59,831 nt of DNA from Eledone cirrhosa. Taxonomy: Eukaryota. Shown in pieces: positions 32,911-48,802 of the stretch (within the stretch, counting starts at the first letter, position 1; every line of letters starts with the position of its first letter). The translations under genes were made by a program, and so were the position numbers. Location: positions 1 through 59,831 of the forward strand of contig CAXHJY010001115.1 in NCBI GenBank assembly GCA_964016885.1, given 5' to 3'. The notes beneath the pieces are model-generated. The model saw nothing but the letters and a program-made list of their open reading frames with translations, did no database searches and had not been told where the DNA came from.

Positions 32911-48802
<15,892 letters not shown>

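Follow-up and report, generated by a model that had tools for sequence, protein, structure and literature searches.

The window analysed here, a stretch of 59,831 nucleotides from Eledone cirrhosa, is the whole of an unplaced contig (G000:C1142; CAXHJY010001115.1) in an assembly of 3.0 Gb (G000), and it contains a gene for GMP synthase (GMPS) in which the cysteine nucleophile of the glutaminase site is encoded as serine. The question that this locus raises is whether the substitution is real and, if so, what a GMPS altered in this way is kept for. The initial annotation proposed a glutaminase-dead GMPS under selection, and offered an ammonia-only enzyme, a Ser-His-Glu hydrolase and a non-catalytic paralogue as possible readings. 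By protein comparison, the nearest relatives of the gene are those of Octopus and Argonauta.

The window gene and its serine codon

The gene model runs on the + strand from an ATG at 32911 to 48802, with 15 exons, 652 stop-free codons and GT-AG borders at 14/14 introns. The end of exon 3, at 37228-37248, reads GGC ATC TCC TAT GGC ATG CAG, in which codon 96 (37234-37236) is TCC, serine. This reading, claimed at the outset, was confirmed in two contigs. A spliced transcript contig from run X1 (2,412 nt, word depth 56) has no other letter over exons 3, 4, 14 (47914..48029) and 15 (48499..48802), with joints at GT..AG borders, and a DNA contig from run X2 covers the full 771-nt exon 3-4 stretch unspliced, again with no differing letter. 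X1 and X2 come from a single study, possibly the one behind the assembly, and do not represent an independent individual; run X5 gave no coverage of exons 3-4. The letter-by-letter comparison with the transcript took in exons 3-4 and 14-15 (two comparisons); across exons 5-13, where H145P, D364E, E367D and N385R lie, transcript and model have exactly the same spacing (1135 = 1135), as they do over a second interval (215 = 215). Assembly error at C96 was rejected because neither contig differs from the window in any letter. Rescue by RNA editing was likewise rejected, an A-to-G change restoring none of the codons tested (0/6), in keeping with the initial contention that A-to-I editing could not restore the TCC and CCA codons. 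We conclude that the gene is expressed and that Ser96 is real.

The claim of an intact gene of 15 exons and 652 amino acids stands as regards the frame and the 14 introns, but the model is incomplete at both ends, since the transcript runs past exon 15 and a splice acceptor lies 5' of exon 1. Exon 15 is joined in the X1 transcript to a further 290 nt of a last exon outside the window, whose first ten codons are V-V-Q-K-M-M-E-A-I-L; this exon was searched for in the window and in the G000 assembly and was not found. The C-termini of orthologues carry the XMP-binding loop KPPxTxEWE, as KPPSNTEWE or KPPATTEWE, and the window counterpart would fall in the last exon absent from the assembly. At the other end, the X1 transcript has 164 nt 5' of the ATG, and the exon that bears it (exon 1, 32903..33003) is preceded by an acceptor AG at 32901-32902. 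A Cys-rich coding exon of about 151 nt, encoding MC...YYYCCCCCC, was sought within the window, where it is absent, and was found on another contig (G000:C788:13276-13425, - strand, locus L009). Its phase fits exon 1, and it is the putative upstream exon of the window gene, which as a whole is probably complete.

Tandem repeats make up 32% of the window by Tandem Repeats Finder, and long TA-rich microsatellite tracts occupy 1-28100, 49300-50000 and 53270-57350. Fragments of reverse-transcriptase retroelements lie at 4927-6789, 21562-23856, 28723-31800, 35923-36888, 50131-53250, 53545-55053 and 57800-59831, several of them in introns or flanks, and the segments 35630-36860 and 50010-51250 are near-identical copies. 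A 61-base tandem array (45540-46030) and a direct duplication of roughly 630 bases (55780-57040) were seen by eye. The segment 58743-59831 and the beginning of C788 agree at 99.7%, which we take to reflect a common young element rather than an overlap of contigs.

Alterations at both active sites

The window exons match PF00117, the protein is 93% identical to that of Octopus vulgaris (P0001), and the tree agrees with this placement. The O. sinensis orthologue carries both PF00117 and PF00958, and the fold that AlphaFold predicts for the O. vulgaris orthologue is that expected of a GMPS (mean pLDDT 80). On these comparisons, the window gene is a GMP synthase by descent. An outgroup of 81 full-length non-cephalopod GMPS proteins defined 188 columns that are at least 98% invariant. 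The window protein departs at 18 of the 188, eight in the glutaminase domain (A27T, Q28L, I66V, C96S, R116Q, G119K, H145P and L187Q) and ten in the synthetase half, where residues 364-385 hold eight of the ten. C96 itself is unchanged in 81/81 outgroup proteins (column conservation 1.0).

On the glutaminase side, the Cys-His-Glu triad is incomplete: exon 3 (37134..37248) keeps SGGP and Gln100 but has Ser in place of the nucleophile, while His182 and Glu184 (40191-40199) are intact in exon 6 (40150..40343), which also carries L187Q. The loops of the glutamine site, canonically GAQY, THGD and REDG, read GTLY, TPGD and QEDK. They are altered by A27T and Q28L of the DAG[AS]QY motif in exon 1 (32989-32994), by H145P in exon 5 (39321..39424; CCA at 39355-39357) and by R116Q (37735-37737) and G119K (37744-37746) in exon 4 (37690..37787). 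The RRVRE motif of helix alpha1, in exon 2 (34627..34718), is intact. The D-A-G-T-L-Y and L-T-P-G-D variants and the unaltered SGGP and FHPE motifs that the initial annotation had listed are all present.

The changes at the synthetase site were absent from that annotation. Exon 10 (43893..44005), which encodes the synthetase catalytic helix and lid loop, carries D364E (43907-43909), E367D (43916-43918), T382G and N385R (43970-43972). The DxxES helix reads ESIDN (D364E, E367D, S368N), and the lid motif IK(T/S)HHN reads IKGHHR, in which K381, H383 and H384 stay. The ATP side is intact at the sites tested (the P-loop and the positions of Plasmodium K386, K411 and K415): exon 7 (40570..40735) has the P-loop SGGVDS and IDNGFMR unchanged, K381 is retained, and exon 11 (44942..45047) preserves FHKDEVR, with K408 and R412, and RHPFP. 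Exons 9 (42933..42993), 12 (46105..46220) and 13 (46538..46663) make up further parts of the GMPS.

If only the use of glutamine had been lost, the protein could be an ammonia-dependent GMP synthase, which would be plausible in the ammonia-rich tissue of cephalopods. Cys mutants of the Plasmodium enzyme (PfGMPS) retain NH4-dependent activity, and in the window protein the P-loop, K381, H383, H384, K408 and R412 are intact and identity to O. vulgaris over the synthetase half is 95%. Against this reading stand N385R and D364E, at columns that are invariant in 81/81 outgroups. The DxxES and IK(T/S)HHN motifs align D364, E367 and N385 with Plasmodium D371, E374 and N390, and the PfGMPS reports (PMC10526850, 10.1101/808618) describe adenyl-XMP formation as almost abolished in D371A, Gln-dependent activity as abolished and NH4-dependent formation as lowered 72-fold in E374L, and N390A as inactive, with T387A of little effect. 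D364E and E367D are conservative, whereas the Plasmodium mutants were to Ala or Leu, which favours an ammonia-dependent enzyme and counts against a dead one. Weighing these points, we regard an enzyme that has lost glutamine use alone as improbable.

Residues defined as functional in the literature are changed more often than the other invariant columns (4/12 vs 14/176, p 0.018), a p value that is soft because the functional set was drawn from papers after the changes were known. From its residues, the window GMPS has very probably lost catalysis.

The intronless copy and the order of losses

A canonical GMPS, for which the initial annotation had advised a search, exists elsewhere in the genome as a single intronless ORF of 687 codons (G000:C11:27625768-27627828, - strand), unlinked to the window gene. 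This C11 copy is 61% identical to the window protein (397/651), and its motifs are all canonical (GAQY, GICYG, THGD, FHPE, PDLIES and KTHHN). Searches of G000 returned these two GMPS loci only (one search matched C11 alone); a third, canonical multi-exon GMPS was looked for in the assembly and none was found. Other PF00117 matches on C1, such as G000:C1:136766062-136767036 (-), are carbamoyl-phosphate-synthetase-type exons and were set aside as not GMPS. In RNA-like runs from two relatives, some contigs have loose ends that resemble the C11 copy. Both copies are called 'GMP synthase [glutamine-hydrolyzing]' in databases, so that the split between the paralogues is unannotated. About 8 kb downstream of the C11 copy, on the same strand (-), lies an intronless UTP15-like ORF of 512 codons (L017, G000:C11 about 27615962-27617503; Pfam UTP15_C, E 3e-40).

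Where vertebrate isoform models carry deletions, 49/98 of the deletion ends lie no more than 3 aa from an exon junction of the window gene, against an expectation of 16%; the tally takes in some terminal artefacts of the alignment (those at 0 and 652), and the recurrent positions are 338, 396, 470 and 512. Because this agreement is far above chance, the intron-bearing state is ancestral, and the C11 gene is best taken as a retrocopy. We hold its origin by retroposition to be highly likely, the intronless state of the second copy being known from this genome only; a duplicate so old would not be expected to retain a poly(A) remnant or a target-site duplication.

Both kinds of GMPS are present in O. 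vulgaris, O. sinensis, O. bimaculoides and Argonauta. The intronless clade also includes a protein of Sepia pharaonis. A tree of 33 rows supports the clade of the window gene (the parent clade) at 100/99-100, the intronless clade at 100/100 and the two as sisters at 100/96; the arrangement expected of a pre-mollusc duplication, in which the parent would sit with other molluscs and leave the second copy outside, was rejected (p-AU 0.012). The searches recovered no sequence from Nautilus, so the duplication can be placed only after the lineage had separated from the other classes of molluscs and before octopods and cuttlefish diverged. Several of the Sepia-type proteins in the intronless clade (P0009, P0209-P0214) have a basic N-terminal extension of 70-125 residues that is absent in octopod copies; it resembles an organelle-targeting peptide, and may alternatively be just an open 5' UTR.

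The invariant columns allow the losses to be placed on this tree. Five intronless-clade proteins have each changed 1-3 of the 188. Parent-type Logan proteins that are sister to the octopod parents, and are probably from squid or cuttlefish, have also changed 1-3 and keep everything except T382V. The three octopod parent lineages have E367D, T382G, L187Q and A436S in common, together with changes at R116, L365, A377 and T634. Beyond this they differ: the O. vulgaris-group parent retains Cys-His-Glu, D364 and N385 with 12/188 columns changed, the Argonauta parent retains Cys but has lost the triad His (H182Q) with 26/188 changed, and the present species has C96S together with D364E and N385R, with 18/188 changed. 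Conserved Ser-type orthologues, for which the initial annotation advised a search, were not found: Cys is present in O. vulgaris, O. sinensis, O. bimaculoides and Argonauta, and Ser96 occurs in 1/10 parent-clade sequences, being private to this lineage. Two near-identical parent-type models of Argonauta on different contigs (P0003 and P0129) have a four-residue insertion in place of REDG as well as the His-to-Gln change.

As read from these alignments, catalytic loss is progressive and lineage-specific, and Ser96 is a late step in a wider decay. Synthetase-side changes preceded the loss of Cys in octopod parents, a further argument against an enzyme that gave up glutamine alone. The same comparison indicates that the parent may still be active in the O. 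vulgaris group and in the sister coleoid lineages, which counts against a dead enzyme there.

The distribution of Ser96 bears also on the proposal of a new hydrolase or amidoligase that would use a Ser-His-Glu triad and a remodelled synthetase pocket. Ser does sit at the nucleophile elbow, with His182, Glu184, Gln100 and SGGP intact, but it is found in one of ten parent-clade sequences, Argonauta has instead lost the His, and the substrate loops are altered differently in each lineage, unlike the outcome of selection for one new activity. We consider such an enzyme highly improbable.

Constraint on the parent gene and a candidate retained role

Comparison of this species with O. vulgaris gives 93% identity for the parent proteins and 86% for the active copies. 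At invariant columns the parent differs at 15/188 and the intronless copy at 4/188 (p 0.016), whereas at variable columns the order is reversed, the parent differing at 5/169 and 19/190 and the intronless copy at 25/169 and 57/190 (p 1e-6). This inversion of constraint was found in 3/3 species pairs, including both comparisons with Argonauta. At the nucleotide level, synonymous and non-synonymous differences between the window gene and runs of its relatives number 20/4, 14/4 and 8/1, a synonymous excess with p values of 2e-6 and 3e-8. The corresponding rough dN/dS is 0.05-0.08 (0.054-0.084; worst case 0.26), a pairwise estimate from partial lists of differences, 19/30 of which are in exon 15 for X20/X15. 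The dN/dS check recommended initially thus gave a value far from 1 for an expressed gene.

These values bear on whether the window gene is a redundant copy on a slow or recent course to becoming a pseudogene. Within the protein, the GATase domain has changed fastest (88% identity to O. vulgaris, vs 95% for the synthetase half), and the terminal branch of the window gene is 0.065 against 0.025 for O. vulgaris, as some relaxation would give; both observations count against our preferred explanation. Decay would also accord with the separate build-up of active-site changes in each of three lineages, with the small unplaced contigs and with the absence of the last exon from the assembly. However, the transcript is full-length and spliced, no stop or splice loss is present, and the probability that a neutral sequence would survive so at 0.05 substitutions per site is about 0.001, indels not counted. 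The synonymous excess and the stronger conservation of the parent than of the active copy at variable columns argue in the same direction, as does the clustering of changes at catalytic sites where decay would spread them. We give decay to a pseudogene little credence. Expression at the transcript level, an intact frame and purifying selection in pairwise rates are among the features by which a pseudoenzyme is recognized, and the gene shows these three. The pattern is what would be seen in a protein in which selection had moved from the active sites to the surface and fold. Triad loss, transcript and constraint together support the original proposal of a glutaminase-dead GMPS under selection.

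A role for GMPS that does not require catalysis is already on record. Two reviews (PMC5131776, PMC5938058) describe USP7 activation and p53 stabilisation by GMPS as independent of catalysis, and a third paper (PMC4457826) describes K321 and K325, in a basic loop of human GMPS, as binding the Ubl2 pocket of USP7. The basic loop is encoded here by exon 8 (41117..41268), where K313 occupies the position of human K321 in the USP7-binding peptide and a ten-residue stretch is intact. K313 is present in 10/10 parent-clade and 69/81 outgroup proteins and is Arg in 15/15 intronless-clade proteins; the charge of the loop is +3/+4 in the parent vs +1/+2 in the intronless clade. One row of the loop comparison (P0154), which had matched the wrong site, was left out. 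The KxxxK motif is incomplete, the second lysine (human K325) being Asn in both cephalopod copies; this position is not Lys in 38/81 outgroup GMPS. A K-to-R change at K313 is mild and could equally concern nuclear import, which counts against a link to USP7. The USP7 exon of this genome (G000:C1:108296432-108296593) retains an acidic pocket, M-D-G-D, which we take to match human USP7 D762/D764, numbered from the human sequence context. No structure of a GMPS-USP7 complex was found, and no such chain is among the 23 PDB matches of the O. vulgaris orthologue. The K313 and pocket evidence for USP7 binding is suggestive only; given a dead enzyme, we think it reasonably probable that USP7 is the retained partner. 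USP7 under allosteric activation by GMPS has roles in H2B deubiquitylation, Polycomb silencing, p53 and hedgehog.

The dead enzyme might instead serve another partner, as a scaffold or regulator of active GMPS or of purine-enzyme assemblies, as a nucleotide sensor, or as a protein anchored to membranes through the Cys-rich exon. The same loss of catalytic residues, the same constraint and the intact ATP-side residues would be expected. The Cys-rich N-terminus, an ancestral feature, occurs in parent-clade, chiton, abalone and snail isoforms and is absent from the octopod intronless copy; a related MC/CC start was seen in sea hare too, and CC-containing GMPS starts in some insects. From its pattern, MC...CCCCCC is presumably a palmitoylation segment, the Cys-rich start is a possible conserved lipid-anchored isoform of GMPS, and a membrane-linked role of the parent is a live alternative or addition to USP7. 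PRPS pseudoenzymes have been proposed to act on their active paralogue (PMC13252144). Against this, a human-type GMPS with the extra domain is reported to be a functional monomer (PMC9312489), which weakens a heterodimer model, and USP7 is the sole catalysis-independent GMPS partner documented in the portions of the literature examined. A partner other than USP7 is compatible with our preferred explanation and not exclusive of it; as a replacement for USP7 we judge it rather unlikely.

Our preferred explanation, to which we assign a probability of roughly 0.58, is that the window gene is the intron-bearing original GMPS, altered at both active sites, catalytically dead and retained for a non-catalytic role, most likely as an activator of USP7. 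Among the options first offered, the non-catalytic paralogue fits best, the ammonia-only enzyme is contradicted by D364E, E367D and N385R, and the Ser-His-Glu hydrolase is weakened. The history would begin with an intronless duplicate beside the original, both lineages being found in octopods and cuttlefish-like coleoids. The duplicate would have been born by retroposition in the cephalopod line and would then have taken over GMP synthesis. In the sequences, the octopod original altered its synthetase helix and lid loop first (E367D, T382G, and changes at L365 and A377) and lost glutaminase residues later, differently by lineage (C96S here, H182Q in Argonauta). The remaining protein, above all at normally variable positions, is more conserved than the active copy, and what is conserved would be a binding surface, and probably the nucleotide pocket (P-loop, K381, H383, H384, K408), for the catalysis-independent function.

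More tentatively, and at somewhat less than even odds, we propose that cephalopods have split GMPS between two genes. The retrocopy would make GMP, and the octopod parent would be a nucleotide-binding, non-catalytic USP7 activator, with a Cys-rich and possibly membrane-anchored isoform. Living species would show near-intact, synthetase-uncoupled and doubly dead stages, and reciprocal losses in the two copies would map the surface by which GMPS controls USP7. The enzymatic and USP7 jobs are hard to separate in animals with one gene; if the proposal is true, a natural pair, one all enzyme and one apparently all regulator, would provide ready-made separation-of-function proteins, and escape from the dual role can be seen at several stages in living species. 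Residues that every parent keeps and every intronless copy has lost are candidates for the interface; they include K313, H472, L474, C623 and Q624. The literature searched, which did not extend to most subscription journals, yielded no account of a pseudoenzyme among GMPS proteins or of the duplication described here for cephalopods.

The window protein is like the animal two-domain GMPS in its class I GATase, ATP pyrophosphatase, D1 insert and C-terminal domain, and several intron positions are common with vertebrates; human GMPS (PDB 2VXO) is the best match of the O. vulgaris orthologue (E 6e-299). Unlike human GMPS, it is altered at the nucleophile Cys, the HGD His, the DxxES Asp and Glu and the lid-loop Asn, all retained by a separate intronless paralogue. 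The Drosophila and human GMPS-USP7 systems (PMC5131776, PMC5938058, PMC4457826) offer a catalysis-independent role that would explain the retention of a dead GMPS. The first lysine, the basic character of the loop and the acidic pocket of USP7 are present here as in the human complex. In those systems, however, one gene does both jobs, whereas here they are apparently divided over two paralogues; KxxxK lacks its second lysine, and binding is predicted. The heterogeneous routes by which a duplicate loses catalytic residues while interfaces are conserved recall the PRPS pseudoenzymes (PMC13252144). Unlike in that type, it is the intron-bearing parent that degenerates and not the new copy, the candidate function is a pre-existing moonlighting role, and intermediate stages are alive. 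Yeast Gal1/Gal3 and viral pseudo-glutamine amidotransferases are other pseudoenzymes born by duplication. Retrogene replacement reportedly occurred at amphioxus SYCP1, the intronless copy carrying the ancestral function; in contrast to that case, the octopod GMPS parent was not lost and is strongly constrained. Pseudoenzymes born by duplication are thus already known; a GMPS one, which would derive from the parent gene and would plausibly isolate a known moonlighting role, did not appear in the literature searched.
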